Positions 2,968-54,273 of a DNA stretch of 64,000 bases are shown in pieces; the stretch's first letter is position 1; each line of letters opens with the position of its first letter. The DNA lies in the IMG/VR virus record IMGVR_UViG_3300045747_000505; one strand, 5' to 3'. Below the pieces are notes generated by a model that was not told the origin of the DNA, did no database searches, and worked only from the letters and a program-made list of their open reading frames with translations. This stretch comes from a virus (taxonomy: Duplodnaviria > Caudoviricetes). The translations under genes were made by a program, and so were the position numbers.

Positions 2968-3098
2968 GTGGAAGTAGCTCAGTTGGTAGAGCGGCCGCCT
3001 CGTCGAAAAACACCCGTGAACGCCCCTTGTTGCGTAAGCAACCGATTGTGAATGGTTATCCAAGCAGCTCGTCGTTGGTTCGAATCCAGCCTTCCACC
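2968..3098 (+). tRNA. tRNA-Gly-like gene with a 58-nt anticodon-loop insertion (permuted motif, copy C)
   Basis: GTGGAAG/CTTCCAC acceptor, canonical D and T arms, loop starts CT and ends TCCAA, no encoded CCA. Confidence 0.65.
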
Positions 3099-3145
3099 CC
3101 GCCTTTTTTACCGATAAATAGAAGTGATTCAACAGGAGCACTTCT

Positions 3146-4331: not shown

Positions 4332-5015
4332 ATGATTCTTGCGGACTTGAAGCCATCGACATCTCGCACGACGTTTATTGAAACGTGGCTTTGTGAAATG
4401 CCAAGTGGTCTTGGCACATTCGAAACTTTCGAGACGCTGGAGTATTCAATCAAGGACTTTCTGAAGTACGGCATCAAGGTTGTCAACGTCAATGGCGTCA
4501 ACAAGATTGATGCTGGCGACAAGGTCTTCTACTGGTTCGAAGCCAACGGGAGCATTCAGCTCGCAACGGAGCTTCATAAAAAATCAGAAGGGCTGGTCGT
4601 CAGTCTTACTGGTAAGAATCCAAAGCTTCGAGGAAGAGCACCATACGCAAGCGAGCTGTACTCTGTCGTGCTAAAGGACTCTGGTAAAAACATTCGACTG
4701 ATGTCTGACACGCAGCTAAGCGACGAAGGTCTTGCTCTTTGGAAGAAGCTCGTTAAGCAGGGCCATAAGGTTTCTGTTTATGACGCAGCCAATCCAGGCA
4801 AATCATTCAAGTCATTTGAGACGCCAGCCGAGCTTGATGCGTTCTTCAAAGATGGCGATACGAATTTCAAGCGTTTTCAATATGTTCTCTCAGAAGAGCT
4901 GCTGAGCTACTGCTCGATGCGAGCAAGCTTTAGACTTCGTTTGCTGAGAGAAACGGTTGGTCATGATTTGACTGACGCACCAAATCCCGTAAGGGTGCCG
5001 TCGAGCTTGGCTTGA
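4332..5015 (+). CDS. GNAT-like phage protein
   Basis: YASELY...LMSDTQLSDEGLALWKKL; late promoter at about 4301. Confidence 0.6.
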   Translation: MILADLKPSTSRTTFIETWLCEMPSGLGTFETFETLEYSIKDFLKYGIKVVNVNGVNKIDAGDKVFYWFEANGSIQLATELHKKSEGLVVSLTGKNPKLRGRAPYASELYSVVLKDSGKNIRLMSDTQLSDEGLALWKKLVKQGHKVSVYDAANPGKSFKSFETPAELDAFFKDGDTNFKRFQYVLSEELLSYCSMRASFRLRLLRETVGHDLTDAPNPVRVPSSLA

Positions 5016-5333: not shown

Positions 5334-5405
5334 TTTCACGTAGCTCAATAGGCAGCAGCACCGCTTAGTATGGCGGGGATGCGGGTTCGAGCCCCGTCGT
5401 GTAAT
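5334..5405 (+). pseudogene. Degenerate tRNA (AGT-like loop)
   Basis: D-arm TAGCTCAATAGGCAGCAGC and GGTTCGAGCCC T-arm; irregular anticodon loop; no CCA. Confidence 0.5.
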
Positions 5406-5423
5406 CGTGGCATTCAATTCCAT

Positions 5424-5722: not shown

Positions 5723-6391
5723 ATGAAGTGTATACTTGAAGTGCGCGCCGCGGAAGGCGGCGATGATGCGAAGCTCTTCGCAAAGGATCTTGCTGCGGCC
5801 TACGGTCGCATGTTCAGCCGCTTCGGCTGAAAGCATCGCCTGCTAGATTCTCGTCAAGGCGAGATCTCGTTAGAGGTCAGCGGCGAGGATTTGACAGGCT
5901 TGCGACAAGAGGCTGGTGGTCATCGCATCATGCGGGTTCCACCAACCGAGCGTAAGGGTCGCGTTCACACTTCAACGGTGACGGTCGCCGTGCTCGACGA
6001 GGCGAAGGCCTCCAGCATCGAGTTCAACGACCGTGACTTTCGCGTCGAGTGGTACTCTGGCACCGGTGCTGGCGGACAACACCGCAACAAGCATCAGAAC
6101 TCGTGTCGCATCACGCATCGCTCAGGAGCGGTGGCTACGGCTCAGTGTCGTAGTCGCGAGAACTCTCTGGCCGAGGCGACGATTGCGATACTGGCACGGT
6201 TGAATGGAGCGGAGCAAGCGTCATCAGCGCTGGCACGGTCGCTCGACCGAAAACAACAAACTGGCAGTGGTGAGCGTGGTGATAAAATACGCACCTACCG
6301 CTTTCAAGACAACTCGGTCAAGGACCATCGCACCAACAACAGCGCGGCTCTCGACATTGTCCTCAACGGCAAGTTCGATCTGCTTTGGTAA
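5723..6391 (+). CDS. RF1-like peptide chain release factor lacking domain 1, with in-frame TGA at codon 36
   Basis: GGAGGA RBS; LEVRAAEGGDDAKLF, GGHRIMRVPPTE (PxT), GAGGQHRNK (GGQ), GERGDKIRTY. TGA at 5828-5830, then the frame stays open to 6391. Confidence 0.85.
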
Positions 6392-6397
6392 ATAGCC

Positions 6398-6486
6398 GCG
6401 GGCTTGGCGAAATTGGTAGACGCAACGGGCTTAAACCCCGTGGCCTTTCACGAGGCGTGCGGGTTCGATGCCCGCAGTCCGCACCA
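6398..6486 (+). tRNA. trnL: tRNA-Leu (TAA)
   Basis: ACGGG-CTTAAAC-CCCGT arm, CCA. Confidence 0.94.
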
Positions 6487-6502
6487 ACATCTGGAGACAA
6501 CA

Positions 6503-6703
6503 ATGAACAAGATCATCGCAGCCATTCTGCTCGCGCTAGTAGCAATCATCATCGCCGGCCTCGTCTACGCGCCAAAGCGTCACACGCCGGTTGGCTCGCT
6601 TGAAGCCACCGTCGAATGCAAGGACGGCCACAAGTGGATTCGCAATCGCGACGGCAAGCTCATCGAGTGGATAACGGCCAACGGCACTAAGCCGCCGTGC
6701 TGA
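6503..6703 (+). CDS. Small membrane-anchored protein
   Basis: GGAG RBS, N-terminal TM helix. Confidence 0.65.
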   Translation: MNKIIAAILLALVAIIIAGLVYAPKRHTPVGSLEATVECKDGHKWIRNRDGKLIEWITANGTKPPC

Positions 6704-6708
6704 TATCT

Positions 6709-6783
6709 GGGCCGTTAGCTCACTGGGTAGAGCGTTCCCCTCATAAGGGACGGGGGAGGGTCCGATTCCCTCACGGCCTACCA
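6709..6783 (+). tRNA. tRNA-Ile2/Met (CAT)
   Basis: Loop CTCATAA, CCA. Confidence 0.88.
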
Positions 6784-6836
6784 ACCTGCATAAAGACAGC
6801 ACCGGTTGATAAATAGATGATACAATGAAATTCAAT

Positions 6837-6916
6837 GTAGAGATGGCGGAGCATGGTCAAACGCAACGCGCTGCAAACGCGTACAATCCCGGGTTCGAAT
6901 CCCGGTCTCTACTCCA
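6837..6916 (+). tRNA. trnC: tRNA-Cys (GCA)
   Basis: ACGCG-CTGCAAA-CGCGT arm, U73, CCA. Confidence 0.9.
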
Positions 6917-6922
6917 AACAAT

Positions 6923-7076
6923 GCCCTTGTAGCTCAGTGGTAGAGCAATCGCCTTTTCAGGAGGGTTTATGACCCTCCTACCCTGCAGATCCTTCAAACG
7001 GTCTGCAGTCTAGGAGAGTTACATCTCTGAAGAGTAAGCGATAGGTCGACAGTTCAATTCTAGTCCTAGGGCACCA
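6923..7076 (+). tRNA. tRNA (probably Thr-TGT) with a 78-nt structured anticodon-loop insertion
   Basis: GCCCTTG acceptor, ATCGC/GCGAT anticodon stem enclosing 85 nt, T-arm, CCA. Confidence 0.7.
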
Positions 7077-7087
7077 CTCTCTCCGAA

Positions 7088-7228
7088 CCTCAATGAAAGA
7101 GTCAACCGCTTGATTGTCGGTTATCTTCACTTCGTAAAACTGAACCGAGGACGTTCGATTCGTCCGCGCCCTTTTTGGTAAAGGCGGGCAAACGTCGACG
7201 TCGCCTTTCGTTGACTCTTTCGTTGAGG
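7088..7228 (+). ncRNA. Repeated structured RNA motif, copy G
   Basis: 19-bp closing stem, AAC-CGC-TTGA-TTGTCGG-TTATC, internal GGACG-TTCGATT-CGTCC. Confidence 0.65.
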
Positions 7229-7236
7229 CTCCAATC

Positions 7237-7872
7237 ATGAAATTACAAGATCTGTTCGAAATGCCGCTATTCATTGACAAGGAATTTCCTACGTTGAAGA
7301 ATTCGCGCATGCTTAGCGCCAACACTATCGAAGATGACTACGATGTCCTTTGGACTGGGAAGCGAAATGAAGCTTCGATCTCTGTGATCATGAAGAAAAA
7401 CAAATCAGTCGCCTTCATCGGTCATTTGGTCGAGCGAACTGACAAAGTCATTTGCCTTCAGCTTGATGGTGGCCTTGAGTTTAAAGATCGCAAGGACTTC
7501 TCCTGGATGCACGACATCAAGGTTGAAGCCAGAAACGCGCTTCAGATTGATGGTATTCAACTTGAAGAAAGCTTTCAAAAGCAAGGCCTGGCGTCGTTAC
7601 TATACCTTGAAATCGTTCGGTACGGCTACGTACTCATTTCAGATACAACACAGTATCGAGGCGGACGCAAACTTTGGGAGTCTCTTGCGAAGAGGCAAGA
7701 AGATCAAGGTGTAAAGATTTATGTTGTCGACAACGGCAAGGTCATCCTTGATGATGCTAATGAGCCGCTTGAGTACGACGGCTCAAACATTCCAGCAGAC
7801 CAAATATGGTCTACCTCAACTAACATTGAAGACAGCAAGAAGCACGTGCTACTTGTGTTGAAATCATTATGA
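7237..7872 (+). CDS. GNAT-family acetyltransferase-like protein
   Basis: FQKQGLASLLY (acetyl-CoA motif A), LISDTTQYRGGRKLW. Confidence 0.7.
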   Translation: MKLQDLFEMPLFIDKEFPTLKNSRMLSANTIEDDYDVLWTGKRNEASISVIMKKNKSVAFIGHLVERTDKVICLQLDGGLEFKDRKDFSWMHDIKVEARNALQIDGIQLEESFQKQGLASLLYLEIVRYGYVLISDTTQYRGGRKLWESLAKRQEDQGVKIYVVDNGKVILDDANEPLEYDGSNIPADQIWSTSTNIEDSKKHVLLVLKSL

Positions 7873-19411: not shown

Positions 19412-19985
19412 ATGTCGGAGCTGTATCGTCACTTCGGAACGCCCATGGGGCGAACCTTAATCTTCGATGACGACGCTTTGCTTTCGTTGTATAATCACGA
19501 AAGCTATGGAACACCCCTCAGCGAGCGCAATGGGTTCGCCGTTGGCAAGCAGTACCTGAACCTGACGGTAACCGCTTGGCGTGAGATGATCCTCGAGGGG
19601 ACGCTCGCTAAGTTCGAGCTGTACGAGGACCCTGCCTACCCGCACTGGTGGTTGGACGGTGTGCTGAACAATCTCTACAAGGACATGACCTATGAAGATC
19701 TCCTCAAGACGTCCCGCGTCGGTGGAAGCCATCGTATCCGACATTCGTGACAAGTGGAGCGCCGAGGACCTGGCCTTCGTAAAGTCTGGCGCTTTCTCGA
19801 TGGGCGCCGTTGGGCGTCGCATTCGCAACGAGTACGGGCTGTGGAATCCGTCGTGTCCGCTGACCGCACGCTGGCACGCTGACCCTGCCAACCGCTTCAT
19901 TCGTGACGGCATCGACTTCTCCGTCGACCATCCGGACAGCGTGGCCGAGCGCATCGAGAGCCTGCTTCGGGAGCAGCTGCAATGA
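19412..19985 (+). CDS. Two hypothetical ORFs (19412-19750, 19692-19985)
   Basis: ORF track; the first may really start at 19338 through a frameshift. Confidence 0.55.
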
Positions 19986-20554
19986 AGATCCTCTTTCTCG
20001 ATATCGACGGCGTGCTGAACAGCTCACGCTCCGTGCTGGCCCGCAGCGGACAGCACCTGATGAACATTGGTGCTTACAATGCAGTGCGCATGCTCTGCGC
20101 TGGCGAGCTGCCGTACGGCATCAAGCAATCGCTGGAGACGGTCGACCCAGTCGCCGTTGACCTCGTCAATCGCTTGCTCTCGAAGGATGAGGACCTGCGC
20201 ATCGTGCTGTCCAGCTCACATCGCTCGTACTTCTCCTCTGTCGCCTATCTGACGCAGTTCGGCTCTGGCGAGCATCTCGCCGCGCTTCAGACCTACCTCA
20301 AGGCGCTTGGGCTGATGGCTGATCGCCTCATCGGCTGCACGCCGCAGCTCCACACCTACCGTGGCACCGAGTGTCGCAAGTGGTTGGAAGAGCATCGTGA
20401 GGTGCGATACGCGTGCGCGCTCGACGATGGCGCCGACTTTCACAAGGGCGACTGCTACCACGTGCTCGTCAATCCAGCCATTGGCTTCTCAGCGGACGAC
20501 TACTACCAAGTATGTCGCCACCTCTTCATCGACGAAAGTCCCATTCTGATCTAA
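19982..20554 (+). CDS. HAD-superfamily phosphatase (RNA-repair-associated type)
   Basis: ILFLDIDGVLNS, IVLSSS, ALDD. Confidence 0.8.
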   Translation: MKILFLDIDGVLNSSRSVLARSGQHLMNIGAYNAVRMLCAGELPYGIKQSLETVDPVAVDLVNRLLSKDEDLRIVLSSSHRSYFSSVAYLTQFGSGEHLAALQTYLKALGLMADRLIGCTPQLHTYRGTECRKWLEEHREVRYACALDDGADFHKGDCYHVLVNPAIGFSADDYYQVCRHLFIDESPILI

Positions 20555-27719: not shown

Positions 27720-28838
27720 ATGAAGGTCTATCTGGTTGGCGGCGCCGTCCGCGACATGCTGTTGAACCGTACGCCCAAGGATCGCGACTACGTGGTCGTT
27801 GGCGCTACCGAGCAGGAGCTGCTCGACGACGGGTTCGAGCGCGTTGGCAAGGACTTCCCAGTCTTTCTGCACCCCGTCACGAAGGACGAGTGGGCGCTGG
27901 CACGAACCGAGCGCAAGGTCGGGCGTGGCTACGGTGGCTTCGAGGTCGAGACGGATGACGTCACGATCGAGCAGGACTTGGAGCGCCGTGATCTGACGAT
28001 CAACTCCATCGCCTACGACGCTGAAGAAGATCTGTACGTCGACCCACATGGCGGTGTCTACGATCTGCAACGCCACATGCTGCGCCACACGTCCGATGCC
28101 TTTCGCGAGGACCCGCTGCGCGTCGTTCGACTGGCTCGCTTCTACGCGCGCTACGCTCAACACGGCTTCACGGTCGCCGCTGGAACGATGACGCTGGCCG
28201 CCGAAGTGGTTGACAGCGGCGAGCTGGACGAGCTGCCGGATGAACGCTTCTGGGCCGAGCTGGAGAAGGTCTTCACCGACGATGGTCAGCCAGCCAAGTT
28301 CTTCGAGCTGCTGTACGAGGTTGGCGCGCTGAACGACGTTCGCTTCTTCCGTGAGCTGTTCGGTCCGAACGTCACGTCGCACTCGCTGGATCGCATCATG
28401 AGAATGGCGCGGTCAGTCTTCAACGTGATTGAACCAGCTGCTCGCGTCGACTTCTTCGCAGCTGGGACGATGCCGTTGGGTGTGCTGCCGATGACGTTCT
28501 CGACCACGCGGTGCATGAAGCTGTACGCTGCGCAGCGCGACATTCGCCTGATCCACACGCAGAACCCGGCGACGCTGGTCGAGTTTCTGACGCGCATCAG
28601 CGCTTGGAACTCGCGCACCACCGCCGACGATCTGGTCGCACTGTTGGACGTCGTCGAGGACGCCGGCTACAACTCGCTGTACCCGTTCGAGTCGACGGAG
28701 CTGGCCGAGATCATTCAAGCTGGCCGGAGCGTCGTGTCTGGGCCGTTCCAACACCTGGTTGGCAGGGCAATCGGTCAGGCCATGATGTCCGAACGGATCG
28801 TTCGCGTCAACGACGCGCTGAACCGTATCAGCTCTTGA
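27720..28838 (+). CDS. cca: tRNA nucleotidyltransferase (CCA-adding enzyme, class II)
   Basis: YLVGGAVRD..DRDY, ALARTERK, RRDLTIN, EDPLRVVRLARF. Confidence 0.95.
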   Translation: MKVYLVGGAVRDMLLNRTPKDRDYVVVGATEQELLDDGFERVGKDFPVFLHPVTKDEWALARTERKVGRGYGGFEVETDDVTIEQDLERRDLTINSIAYDAEEDLYVDPHGGVYDLQRHMLRHTSDAFREDPLRVVRLARFYARYAQHGFTVAAGTMTLAAEVVDSGELDELPDERFWAELEKVFTDDGQPAKFFELLYEVGALNDVRFFRELFGPNVTSHSLDRIMRMARSVFNVIEPAARVDFFAAGTMPLGVLPMTFSTTRCMKLYAAQRDIRLIHTQNPATLVEFLTRISAWNSRTTADDLVALLDVVEDAGYNSLYPFESTELAEIIQAGRSVVSGPFQHLVGRAIGQAMMSERIVRVNDALNRISS

Positions 28839-43272: not shown

Positions 43273-44328
43273 ATGTCCAAGCTCCTCACTCGTGAAGCCT
43301 TTCGTGAAGGCGTCTTCGCCCGCGACGGCCACAAGTGCGTGGTCTGCGGCAAGACCGCTGAGCAAACCCCTGAGGGCAAGCTCGACGCGCATCACATCAT
43401 CGAACGTCGGCTCTGGTCCGACGGCGGCTACTACCTCGACAACGGAGCAACGGTCTGTGAAGAACATCACCTGGAGTGCGAGCGAACTATCCGCAGCGTC
43501 GAAGAAGTTCGAGCTCAATGTGGTATTACCACGATTGTCGTCCCCGACCAATTTTACCCCGAGCAGCCAATCACCAAGTGGGGCGACTATGTCCTCGATA
43601 ACGGCTACCGCACAAAGGGTGAGCTGTTCTTTGACGTCAGCGTACAGAAGGTCCTGCGGGACGCCGGAGTCCTAGACCTCTACGTTCCGTACGTCAAGTA
43701 CGGTCGGACGTTCCATCTGCCGTTCTCGCCTGGGATGCACGACGATGACAAGGCGCTGAAGGACTGCGAGCAGTTCGAAGGCAAGGACGTCGTCATCTCC
43801 ATCAAGTTCGACGGTGAGAACACCTCGGGCTACAGCGATGGCCACGTTCACGCTCGCTCCATCGACAGCCGTGGTGGCGAGGAGCGCGCCTGGGTCAAGC
43901 GATTCCTGGCCGAGAACGTGTGCTACAACCTACCCGAAGGGTGGCGCGTCTGTGGCGAGAACGTTTGGGCCGAGCACAGCATCAAGTACACCGACCTGCC
44001 CTCCTACTTCCTCGGCTTCAGCATCTGGAACGAGAAGAACGAATGTCTGTCGTGGGACGACACGCTCGAGTGGTTCGAGCTGCTGGACATCACGCCGGTC
44101 AAGGTTCTCTACCGTGGTCCGTTCAACGGCGACGTGCTGAAGTACGCGACCGAGTTCGTTGCTCCACTGTGGGAGACCACTGAGGGCTACGTCGTTCGCG
44201 TTGCCGATAGCTTCAAGTACGGCGACTTCAAGAAGAGCGTTGCGAAGTACGTTCGCAAGGGCCACGTTCAAACCCAGAAGCACTGGCGTGCCGGTGCTCA
44301 CTTCAAACCAAACGGACTCGCAAAGTGA
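43273..44328 (+). CDS. HNH domain fused to ATP-dependent RNA ligase
   Basis: CVVC...DAHHI...VCEEHH; KFDGEN (motif I), GEN, EGYV, KYV. Confidence 0.88.
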   Translation: MSKLLTREAFREGVFARDGHKCVVCGKTAEQTPEGKLDAHHIIERRLWSDGGYYLDNGATVCEEHHLECERTIRSVEEVRAQCGITTIVVPDQFYPEQPITKWGDYVLDNGYRTKGELFFDVSVQKVLRDAGVLDLYVPYVKYGRTFHLPFSPGMHDDDKALKDCEQFEGKDVVISIKFDGENTSGYSDGHVHARSIDSRGGEERAWVKRFLAENVCYNLPEGWRVCGENVWAEHSIKYTDLPSYFLGFSIWNEKNECLSWDDTLEWFELLDITPVKVLYRGPFNGDVLKYATEFVAPLWETTEGYVVRVADSFKYGDFKKSVAKYVRKGHVQTQKHWRAGAHFKPNGLAK

Positions 44329-50835: not shown

Positions 50836-51471
50836 ATGCAAAAGCCACCTAAGACTTACCACTACCTTTATCGAACAACCTGTCTTGTGACAGGCAAGTT
50901 CTATGTTGGTATGCACTCAACAGACGACCTCAACGACGGTTATCTTGGGAGCGGAAAGATTTTAGGTCGCTCTCGCAAAAAGCATGGTGACGAAAAACAT
51001 GTGAAAGAAATTCTTGAACACTGTGCCTCTCGTGAAGCGCTGAAACTTCGTGAGAAGGAAATAGTCTCAGCAGAGATGCTCGCCAACCCGTTGAACATCA
51101 ATTTGAAGATTGGCGGCGAAGGCGGTTGGGATCATATACCGCAGGAGGTAGTTCTATCGAACCTCTCAAAAAGAAATGTTGGTTGGGCGACCTACAACAG
51201 ATCAGAAAAGGGAAGGCTCAAAGCCTCTGAAAACATTCGCAAGATAAATGTTGTTGGTCGAAAGTCTTCTTATGGTTTTCGTGGCAAACAACATACCGAT
51301 GAAACTAAACAAATTCAAAGCCAGCACCATCAAGGTGCTGGCAACTCTCAATACGGAACTTGTTGGGTAACCAAAGACAACAAGTCATCCAAAATCAAAA
51401 AGACTGACCTTGACGAATACCTCGCTAATGGTTTCTCGAAAGGCAGAGTAATTTCTAAAATGGTGATGTAG
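50836..51471 (+). CDS. GIY-YIG homing endonuclease (SegB-like)
   Basis: YLYRTTCLVTGKFYVGMHST...YLGSG; paralog of 3146. Confidence 0.9.
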   Translation: MQKPPKTYHYLYRTTCLVTGKFYVGMHSTDDLNDGYLGSGKILGRSRKKHGDEKHVKEILEHCASREALKLREKEIVSAEMLANPLNINLKIGGEGGWDHIPQEVVLSNLSKRNVGWATYNRSEKGRLKASENIRKINVVGRKSSYGFRGKQHTDETKQIQSQHHQGAGNSQYGTCWVTKDNKSSKIKKTDLDEYLANGFSKGRVISKMVM

Positions 51472-51587
51472 TGTAGTGGCAGCACAGAAAACATCGTTCG
51501 CGCTTTTTGTTGCGCAAGTAACCGCTTGTGAATGGTTATCTTTATCATCCAAAGCTAGGGTTGGTTCGAATCCAGCCATCACCACCA
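51462..51587 (+). ncRNA. tRNA-like RNA whose anticodon arm is replaced by the permuted motif (copy D)
   Basis: GGTGATG/CATCACC acceptor, A73, CCA, D and T arms; 31/34 nt identical to the 2968 insertion. Confidence 0.65.
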
Positions 51588-54199: not shown

Positions 54200-54273
54200 G
54201 GGGGCGTAGTTAAGTGGTATAACATGCGGCTTTTACCCGTTCGTCCTGAGTTCGATTCTCAGTGCCCCTACCA
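54200..54273 (+). tRNA. trnK: tRNA-Lys (TTT)
   Basis: Loop CTTTTAC, CCA. Confidence 0.88.

Follow-up and report, generated by a model that had tools for sequence, protein, structure and literature searches.

A 78-nt structured insert between anticodon nucleotides 34 and 35 of a phage tRNA-Thr(UGU) gene, a candidate protein-excised mini-intron

Some tRNA genes of Lak megaphages harbour short inserts in their anticodon loops, described as 'enigmatic' introns, that belong to no Rfam class (Devoto et al. 2019, PMC6784885). These introns are highly conserved, include one in a tRNA-Thr(TGT) gene and occur in alleles with and without the intron, and their mechanism was left unexplained (PMC6784885). 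Here, we describe an insert in a tRNA gene at positions 6923-7076 of a 64,000-nt stretch of phage DNA, the IMG/VR virus record IMGVR_UViG_3300045747_000505 (Duplodnaviria; Caudoviricetes), which was analysed at its full length and is called the window below. The gene codes for a tRNA-Thr(UGU) and is split between anticodon nucleotides 34 and 35 by 78 nt (6956-7033), so that 85 nt rather than 7 separate the two strands of the anticodon stem. The best explanation, to which we give a probability of about 0.5, is that the insert is a protein-excised mini-intron of a working phage tRNA-Thr(UGU) gene. The Lak introns are the only published precedent, and the fold reported here is a separate type. 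What is new is that the exact boundaries are seen in sequencing data, that the four-way-junction fold is conserved, that the junctions have a geometry like that of RNase III products and that the same genome encodes a candidate ligase. A literature search retrieved no described mechanism for the removal of phage tRNA mini-introns. To our knowledge, the only tRNA splicing known in bacteria and their viruses is that of self-splicing group I introns.

The present insert and the Lak introns are alike in that both are short, non-group-I inserts in the anticodon loop of a huge-phage tRNA, conserved between phages. The Thr gene of Lak-A1 (MK250016; L018:155-343, minus strand) is nevertheless built differently. 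Its insert is 114 nt long, AT-rich and located between nucleotides 36 and 37, and it contains a nested tRNA-like cloverleaf. The insert described here is 78 nt long, is located between nucleotides 34 and 35, has no sequence in common with that of Lak-A1 and is not recognised as tRNA-like, neither Rfam nor ARAGORN giving a tRNA match inside it. In the Lak-A1 tRNA-Thr(TGT) precursor, the ends of the intron pair with anticodon-loop bases and extend the anticodon stem.

All parts of the interrupted gene are on the plus strand. Exon 1 (6923-6955), as delimited by an alignment to the Rfam tRNA model, comprises the 5' strand of the acceptor stem (6923-6929), the D arm (6932-6946) and the 5' strand of the anticodon stem (6948-6952), followed by C32, U33 and U34. 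Exon 2 (7034-7076), delimited by the same alignment and by the ARAGORN cloverleaf of the joined exons, starts with G35, U36, A37 and A38 and continues with the 3' strand of the anticodon stem (7038-7042), the variable loop, the T arm (7048-7065), the 3' strand of the acceptor stem (7066-7072) and A73-CCA. An earlier note on this DNA, made from the sequence alone, had proposed that an ATCGC/GCGAT stem encloses 85 nt, and this stem is indeed found at 6948-6952/7038-7042. The cloverleaf has two irregularities, a U6.U67 mismatch in the acceptor stem (6923-6929/7066-7072) and an extra A (7062) in the 3' strand of the T stem.

The Rfam tRNA model matches 6923-7072 with a score of 32.0 bits, against a gathering score of 29, and places an 81-nt insertion in the anticodon loop. 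ARAGORN makes no call for the gene, be it in default or in intron mode, the latter being a check that had been suggested in the earlier note. In contrast, when 6956-7033 are removed, it calls the joined exons as a 76-nt tRNA-Thr(tgt) with the loop CUUGUAA. By E. coli rules, the identity elements for threonyl-tRNA synthetase are G1-C72, C2-G71, G35 and U36, and all of them are present in the gene sequence. Standard tRNA finders miss this gene, and the phage thus seems to be devoid of a Thr-UGU decoder that it probably has.

A second copy of the gene was found through homologues of the protein encoded downstream (7237-7872), which led to the ENA contig L001, where this protein is 43% identical. 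The copy is located at L001:4982-5129 and was flagged by a 144-nt match to the Rfam tRNA model (L001:4982-5125). Its exons are identical to those of the window at all 76 positions (33/33 in exon 1 and 43/43 in exon 2), the U.U mismatch and the T-stem bulge included. As both irregularities of the cloverleaf are kept, they are tolerated or functional. The L001 insert is 72 nt long, and 60 of the 78 insert columns of the alignment are identical (77%); 12 columns differ by substitution and 6 contain gaps. Over the 100-nt flanks, similarity does not exceed background (about 54%). If the exons were drifting at the rate of the insert, simple arithmetic gives a probability of ~2e-9 for 0 changes in 76 positions.

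The insert has a conserved fold, which consists of a 6-bp closing helix (P1) and three hairpins (Ha, Hb and Hc) that together form a four-way junction. The minimum free energy (MFE) of the whole RNA is -57.3 kcal/mol (z = -3.84), and none of 200 shuffled sequences was as good; the L001 homologue folds alike (z = -4.05). P1 pairs 6953-6958 with 7029-7034 and is present in the MFE structures of both homologues. Its 5' strand holds the 5' junction (6955/6956) and its 3' strand the 3' junction (7033/7034), and G7034 becomes anticodon nucleotide G35. In the precursor, P1 extends the anticodon stem, from which it is separated on the 3' side by a 3-nt bulge of exon bases (7035-7037). Ha (6959-6979) has the core GGAGGG/CCCTCC and the loop TTTATGA. 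In the MFE folds, Hb (6983-7008) has a 9-bp stem and an 8-nt loop, with a tip of variable length. Hc (7013-7028) has the stem GGAGA/TCTCT and a loop of 6 nt in the window and 4 nt in L001.

Two of the helices predicted in the earlier note are part of this fold as they stood, GGAGGG/CCCTCC at 6960-6965/6973-6978 and CTGCAGATC/GGTCTGCAG at 6983-6991/7000-7008. A third, the extended helix CTTTTCAG/CTGAAGAG, is present in the sequence at 6953-6960/7027-7034, but the last 2 of its 8 bp are contested, as they share G6960 with the GGAGGG helix and compete with the hairpin GGAGA/TCTCT (7013-7017/7024-7028). Because covariation backs Hc over these 2 bp, we retained a 6-bp P1 and three hairpins. The alternative rod-like fold, in which alignment columns 51-58 pair with 89-96 and columns 38-42 with 102-106, is feasible in the window and broken in L001.

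The homologue survey that had been suggested for this locus thus yielded a copy whose insert structure is conserved with two compensatory pairs. Outside the tip of Hb, six substitutions distinguish the inserts of the window and L001. Four of them form the compensatory pairs, namely G-C to A-U at columns 41:53 in Ha and A-U to G-C at columns 93:104 in Hc; one is located in the Ha loop and one in a junction. All six pairs of P1 are invariant. The pattern is that expected for a conserved fold, with the proviso that covariation drawn from two full-length sequences has little formal power and that a shuffle control cannot beat 129/500.

Two other readings of the insert were rejected. A mini-ORF (open reading frame; 6969-7013) of 14 codons, with AGGAGG placed 4 nt before its ATG, lies within Ha and Hb; its frame and length differ in L001 and its start codon is ACG in a relative (6970 T>C), and it is probably due to chance. 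The insert is present only once within the window, which does not fit a repeat or mobile element. It is also unrelated to the type of insertion found at position 2968, as had been proposed from the sequence alone: the motif TTGTKGARGGTTATC of that type matches at 1172, 1338, 3046 and 51526, and nowhere in 6923-7076 with up to 3 mismatches.

The boundaries of the insert are supported by sequencing data. Contigs of the RNA libraries X7, X8 and X9 and of run X14, the type of which is unrecorded, were aligned to positions 6800-7200 of the window. One 286-nt contig (depth 3.44) of the freshwater metatranscriptome X7 covers 6923-6955 without differences and continues on 7034-7175 with 8 differences, and then for another ~110 nt. 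Its joint from 6955 to 7034 skips exactly 78 nt, and the position of the joint is unambiguous. The contig starts at the mature 5' end of the tRNA, and a second X7 contig stops 3 nt past the preceding tRNA-Cys. The insert has no cover in X7, an absence that carries no evidential weight by itself. Two readings of the joined form, as RNA spliced in a close relative or as an allele without the insert, have roughly even odds. Under either reading, the insert is a discrete unit with the boundaries 6955/6956 and 7033/7034.

X8 (freshwater RNA), X9 (wastewater RNA) and X14 contain relatives with the insert and represent three further studies. Within the insert, the differences listed for these relatives comprise 6959 A>G, 6970 T>C and 6991 C>T, together with substitutions and indels over 6991-6999, and all of these fall in loops or keep a wobble pair. 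Both changes in Ha, at 6959 and 6970, either preserve pairing or affect the loop, C6991>T retains a G-U pair, and the indels and substitutions cluster in the Hb loop (6991-6999). The X8 sequence differs after position 7060, and the tRNA body is therefore not identical in every relative.

The element was found only in the window phage, in L001 and in the relatives of these three further studies. The window phage itself was detected by shared words in the pond and wetland DNA runs X1-X4. Scans for the insert pattern gave no further homologue in IMG/VR or in JGI metagenomes, and only tRNA halves among the cultured phages of INPHARED. No further homologue of the gene was found by searching IMG/VR for the neighbouring protein, or through the synteny of the endonuclease beside the L001 copy, which led to other tRNAs and other insert types. 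In the GTDB genomes (one per prokaryote species), a single match was obtained inside an ABC-transporter gene of Sphingobium; it is devoid of a tRNA and of a match to the model and was attributed to chance.

The identity of the tRNA was assessed by comparison with uninterrupted genes. Excision of the insert had been predicted in the earlier note to give either CTT/GTAA, for Thr (TGT), or CTTT/TAA, for Lys (UUU). The first of these readings, with its 78-nt excision, corresponds to the sole joint in the sequencing data, which skips exactly 6956-7033. We rejected the Lys reading, as no joint supports it and the Thr anticodon arm equals those of real Thr genes. It had also been claimed that the window has no other Thr TGT gene and already has a Lys TTT gene at 54200; ARAGORN agrees on both counts, finding Thr GGT and CGT and no TGT, and Lys TTT at the position given. 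A tmRNA-like (transfer-messenger RNA) reading was rejected as well, since there is no G3-U70 and neither ARAGORN nor Rfam gives a tmRNA match here.

With a covariance model built from the window and L001 sequences, we aligned tRNAs of the ordinary kind from related phages. One of them, the tRNA-Thr(UGU) at L005:9572-9647, has the anticodon arm ATCGC-CTTGTAA-GCGAT-AGGTC, which is the arm left by removing 6956-7033, and the gene at L016:1164-1238 has the same T arm without the extra A. A close relative, the Logan contig L048, has near-identical tRNA-Met and tRNA-Cys genes and a near-identical downstream Y-like RNA. Its gene order is Met, Cys, Thr, Y-like RNA and ORF, and the Thr slot is filled by an uninterrupted tRNA-Thr(TGT) (L048:3224-3297). 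The body of that tRNA differs, with 56 identical positions in a pairwise alignment of the 76- and 74-nt sequences. Both the same-slot gene of L048 and the anticodon arm of L005 back the Thr(TGT) reading. Because L048 has an uninterrupted tRNA-Thr(TGT) there, this slot of the array encodes Thr-UGU decoding, and the interrupted gene fills it in the window. Comparison of L048:2930-3570 with window 6380-7260 also indicated that the tRNA array is a patchwork between close relatives. In L048, another Thr gene and ~95 nt of unrelated sequence replace the interrupted gene, the spacing of tRNA-Leu(taa) differs, and the ~220-nt segment 6487-6708 of the window is missing.

Beyond the Lak introns, several known systems share part of these features. 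The group I intron of cyanobacterial and plastid tRNA-Leu(UAA) genes is also inserted between nucleotides 34 and 35, after a U. In contrast with the 78 nt and three simple hairpins found here, group I introns have ~200 nt or more, a P3-P9 core and a terminal G. The insert has no match to RF00028 (Intron_gpI) at E-values up to 10, and although U34 precedes the junction, the insert ends with ...GAAGA. The bulge-helix-bulge introns of archaea and eukaryotes (EndA/TSEN, RtcB) are likewise small, protein-excised and located in the anticodon loop, with bases of which they pair. Their motif of two 3-nt bulges around a 4-bp helix is absent from the precursor, where a single 3-nt bulge (7035-7037) is made of exon bases. 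In addition, bulge-helix-bulge cuts leave 5' overhangs, whereas the cuts proposed here are inside the 6-bp P1 and would leave a 3' overhang, the opposite polarity. Neither EndA nor RtcB was found in the window, and we know of no bacterium with EndA.

Two systems provide parallels for the steps of cutting and sealing. Intervening sequences of 23S rRNA in Salmonella and other bacteria are reportedly excised by RNase III, a finding said to be that of Burgin et al. in 1990. There too, an extra stem-loop domain of a stable RNA is removed by a staggered cut at its base helix; the 23S rRNA pieces are not rejoined, whereas a tRNA cut in the anticodon would need ligation. In T4, Pnkp and Rnl1 reseal the anticodon loop of tRNA-Lys cut by PrrC, a break with cyclic-phosphate and 5'-OH ends. 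In that system, a phage RNA ligase similarly seals an anticodon-loop break next to position 34, but what it mends is damage by a host nuclease and not a gap left by programmed excision.

The bacterial and phage Y RNAs of the YrlA type, which have Ro60-binding motifs (Chen et al. 2014, PMC4201824; Rfam RF02553), also combine a tRNA-like domain with a structured module that replaces the anticodon region. They occur in the same phage arrays, one of them directly downstream of the interrupted gene. Unlike in these RNAs, the Ro60-binding motifs are missing from the insert, the topology is not permuted and the exons rebuild a perfect Thr anticodon loop. A YrlA match at 6887-6946 (20.7 bits against 69) covers only the arms of neighbouring tRNAs. 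Finally, small self-cleaving ribozymes of the hammerhead, hairpin, twister, pistol, hatchet and HDV-like classes were not detected over 6800-7250 with Rfam at E-values up to 10. Nor does the insert have the tRNA shape that removal by RNase P and RNase Z would require. From the 5' junction, the stack is limited to 3 bp of P1 and 5 bp of Hc, instead of ~12 bp, the loop of Hc, at 6 nt (4 nt in L001), does not qualify as a T loop, and two bases rather than one follow the last pair.

As the insert has no self-splicing core, we propose that proteins remove it. We give its removal at the RNA level slightly better than an even chance; if it is removed, dependence on proteins rather than on the RNA itself is quite probable. 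The transcript would lose exactly 6956-7033 to yield a 76-nt tRNA with the anticodon loop CUUGUAA. A double-strand cut across P1, with the junctions on opposite strands, would leave 2-nt 3' overhangs on both products, and the broken anticodon loop would then be sealed by the phage's own ATP-dependent RNA ligase. This cut geometry derives from the fold and the X7 joint, which place the cuts after columns 33 (5') and 111 (3'). In P1 (columns 31-36/107-112), column 34 pairs with column 109 and column 31 with column 112, which gives 2-nt 3' overhangs on the exon and insert sides. The junctions on P1 thus have the geometry of RNase III products, namely both strands cut with 2-nt 3' overhangs, for a cleavage that is itself predicted. 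RNase III leaves 3'-OH and 5'-phosphate ends, and ATP-dependent RNA ligases join such ends without healing. Its substrates span about two helix turns, and ~20 bp would be reached here if the 5 bp of the anticodon stem, the 6 bp of P1 and the 9 bp of Ha were stacked.

The candidate sealing enzyme is an HNH-fused ATP-dependent RNA ligase (43273-44328, plus strand; Pfam RNA_ligase PF09414, E = 2e-24, residues 172-327). It has an HNH-type CxxC...HH...N...CxxHH motif at residues ~15-70 and KxDG at ~178. Such a combination of nuclease and ligase would be suited to cutting and sealing, and the protein is put forward as a candidate from its context only. The same holds for a HAD-family phosphatase of the RNA-repair ('Swiss Army Knife') type (19982-20554, plus strand; Pfam HAD_SAK_2 PF18143, E = 6e-20). 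The window also encodes a metallophosphoesterase and a CCA-adding enzyme (27720-28838, Pfam). The HNH-fused ligase architecture has been noted for jumbo phages, in which Rnl-type ligases are frequent (PMC7824862). The gene directly downstream (7237-7872) was rejected as a candidate nuclease, as its product models as a divergent GNAT-like fold. We tentatively infer a protein-driven tRNA splicing of the phage's own, in which the host RNase III or the HNH domain of the ligase would cut P1 and the phage ATP-dependent RNA ligase would reseal the tRNA; in its specific form, an RNase III-type cut followed by the phage Rnl pathway, it is a doubtful proposal.

Several observations weigh against a protein-excised mini-intron. 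The nuclease step is a guess, since no RNase III, RtcB or splicing-endonuclease gene was found among the about 60 ORFs of the window that were scanned. The 2-nt stagger could be due to chance, which we guess at one in six to ten. It is not a general rule either, as the junctions of the Lak-A1 Thr intron, with the boundaries read as CTTGT/.../AA, are staggered by 3 nt with 3' overhangs. P1 never varies and hence is untestable by covariation, and there are only two full-length sequences. L001 has a normal tRNA-Thr(TGT) just upstream (4859-4934), and thus the interrupted gene is not needed for decoding there. The joined form is represented by one contig, which comes from a relative with a downstream flank ~94% identical. 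As DNA can occur in RNA libraries, this contig, which extends ~210 nt beyond the 3' end of the tRNA, could equally be an insert-less DNA allele or its transcript. Lastly, RNA-library contigs of two other studies (X8 and X9) retain the insert.

Some of these observations would also be accounted for if the 154-nt RNA were never spliced and were a stable tRNA-like small RNA with the three-hairpin domain as its working part. Its tRNA body would then be a handle for tRNA-binding proteins and stability, as in the Y-RNA-like chimaeras of these arrays, and the joined form in X7 would represent an insert-less allele of a related phage. The same arrays do hold tRNA-shaped genes with Y-RNA-type modules (2968-3101 and 51462-51587; L013:2696-2825), and a Y-like RNA directly follows the gene in both the window and L001. 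The conserved structure of the insert, its presence in contigs of the RNA libraries X8 and X9 and the separate normal Thr(TGT) gene of L001 are in line with such an RNA. We nevertheless regard it as rather unlikely. The Y-RNA motifs are missing from the insert, where TTGTKGARGGTTATC is unmatched and no GNCGAA-type motif of PMC4201824 is visible, and the portions of the anticodon loop that the exons supply match a real Thr-UGU tRNA exactly. In addition, L048 has a decoding tRNA in the same slot, and if an allele lacked the insert but had this odd body, that alone would show that the body works as a tRNA.

That the insert removes itself, as a new and very small self-splicing or self-cleaving RNA, is improbable. 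The conservation of the junction strands (TCTA) and of the Ha loop would agree with this possibility, and four-way junctions are known in some small ribozymes. In a self-cleaving version, the phage heal-and-seal enzymes would join 2',3'-cyclic phosphate and 5'-OH ends, for which its phosphatase and ligase genes are suited. However, no Rfam ribozyme or intron family matches 6800-7250 even at E-values up to 10, and 78 nt is far below the size of any known self-splicing intron. Moreover, the insert ends in A and not in the terminal G of group I introns, and both junctions lie within a regular helix rather than in a structured catalytic pocket; on this anatomy, self-splicing is unlikely. Least probable of all, and very unlikely, is a decaying pseudogene, in which a selfish or accidental insertion of DNA would have disabled a tRNA gene that was redundant. 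The poor tRNA score (32 bits), the acceptor mismatch and the T-stem bulge would fit decay, as would the variation of the slot between close relatives and the abundance of free-standing homing-endonuclease genes (GIY-YIG, DUF559 and HNH) in these arrays. Decay is at odds with exons that are 76/76 identical across unrelated flanks, their irregularities conserved too, with compensatory changes that maintain the insert hairpins and with variants in three more samples that respect the fold.

If the tRNA is indeed resealed by the phage ligase, the tRNA-Thr(UGU) of this phage would exist only when the phage RNA-repair enzymes are present. A maturation that needs phage enzymes could, speculatively, time the supply of the Thr-UGU decoder or keep a pool of precursor beyond the reach of host anticodon nucleases. 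With its exact boundaries, conserved fold, testable cut geometry and candidate ligase, the 154-nt substrate makes protein-dependent splicing in a bacterial system straightforward to test at the bench.

The window is phage-like and rich in tRNA genes: ARAGORN predicts 46 of them, all on the plus strand. A cluster look-up assigns the neighbouring protein to a contig of 273,537 nt. Pfam also indicated a short release factor (5891-6391), a UvrD helicase and free-standing GIY-YIG, DUF559 and HNH endonucleases. The RNA directly downstream of the interrupted gene (7088-7228) is strongly folded (z = -5.1). A 19-bp stem closes it, and inside it has a T-arm-like hairpin; it also carries a variant of the Y-module motif (CCGCTTGATTGTCGGTTATC). 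L001 has a similarly built element immediately after its copy of the gene (L001:5130-5270), and L048 keeps the 7088-7228 element at ~97% identity. Thus, the Thr gene and a Y-like RNA adjoin in all three phages. The next gene (7237-7872) codes for a conserved 211-residue protein with 8 homologues within the tRNA arrays of related phages. A divergent GNAT-like acetyltransferase fold is suggested by its AlphaFold model (predicted local distance difference test score, 80) and its Atlas neighbours; matches in the PDB are all weak (E >= 1e-3). A tRNA-directed role of this protein is conceivable.

A second family of oversized tRNA-like genes carries a Y-type module with GTGAATGGTTATC or GTGAATGATTATC. 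Its members are located at L013:2696-2825, L012:3150-3280 and window 2968-3101 and 51462-51587. The module of L013 and L012 precedes an intact anticodon stem-loop (CUGUUAA, Asn) and is therefore located between the D arm and the anticodon arm and not in the anticodon loop. Other unusual genes were found in the window and in related phage contigs. A tRNA with an 8-nt anticodon loop (window 5334-5406; 'agta' according to ARAGORN), which could be Tyr-like or of a frameshift type, is conserved in a close relative (L048:1882-1954). Permuted tmRNAs of the two-piece type are encoded at L001:207-556 and L004:318-648 (Rfam tmRNA_permuted, 97-118 bits), with the tags ANADNFRFAA and ANASQFRMVA. The related phage contig L004 also has a tRNA with the anticodon CTA (L004:1546-1621), an amber suppressor that ARAGORN labels Pyl.

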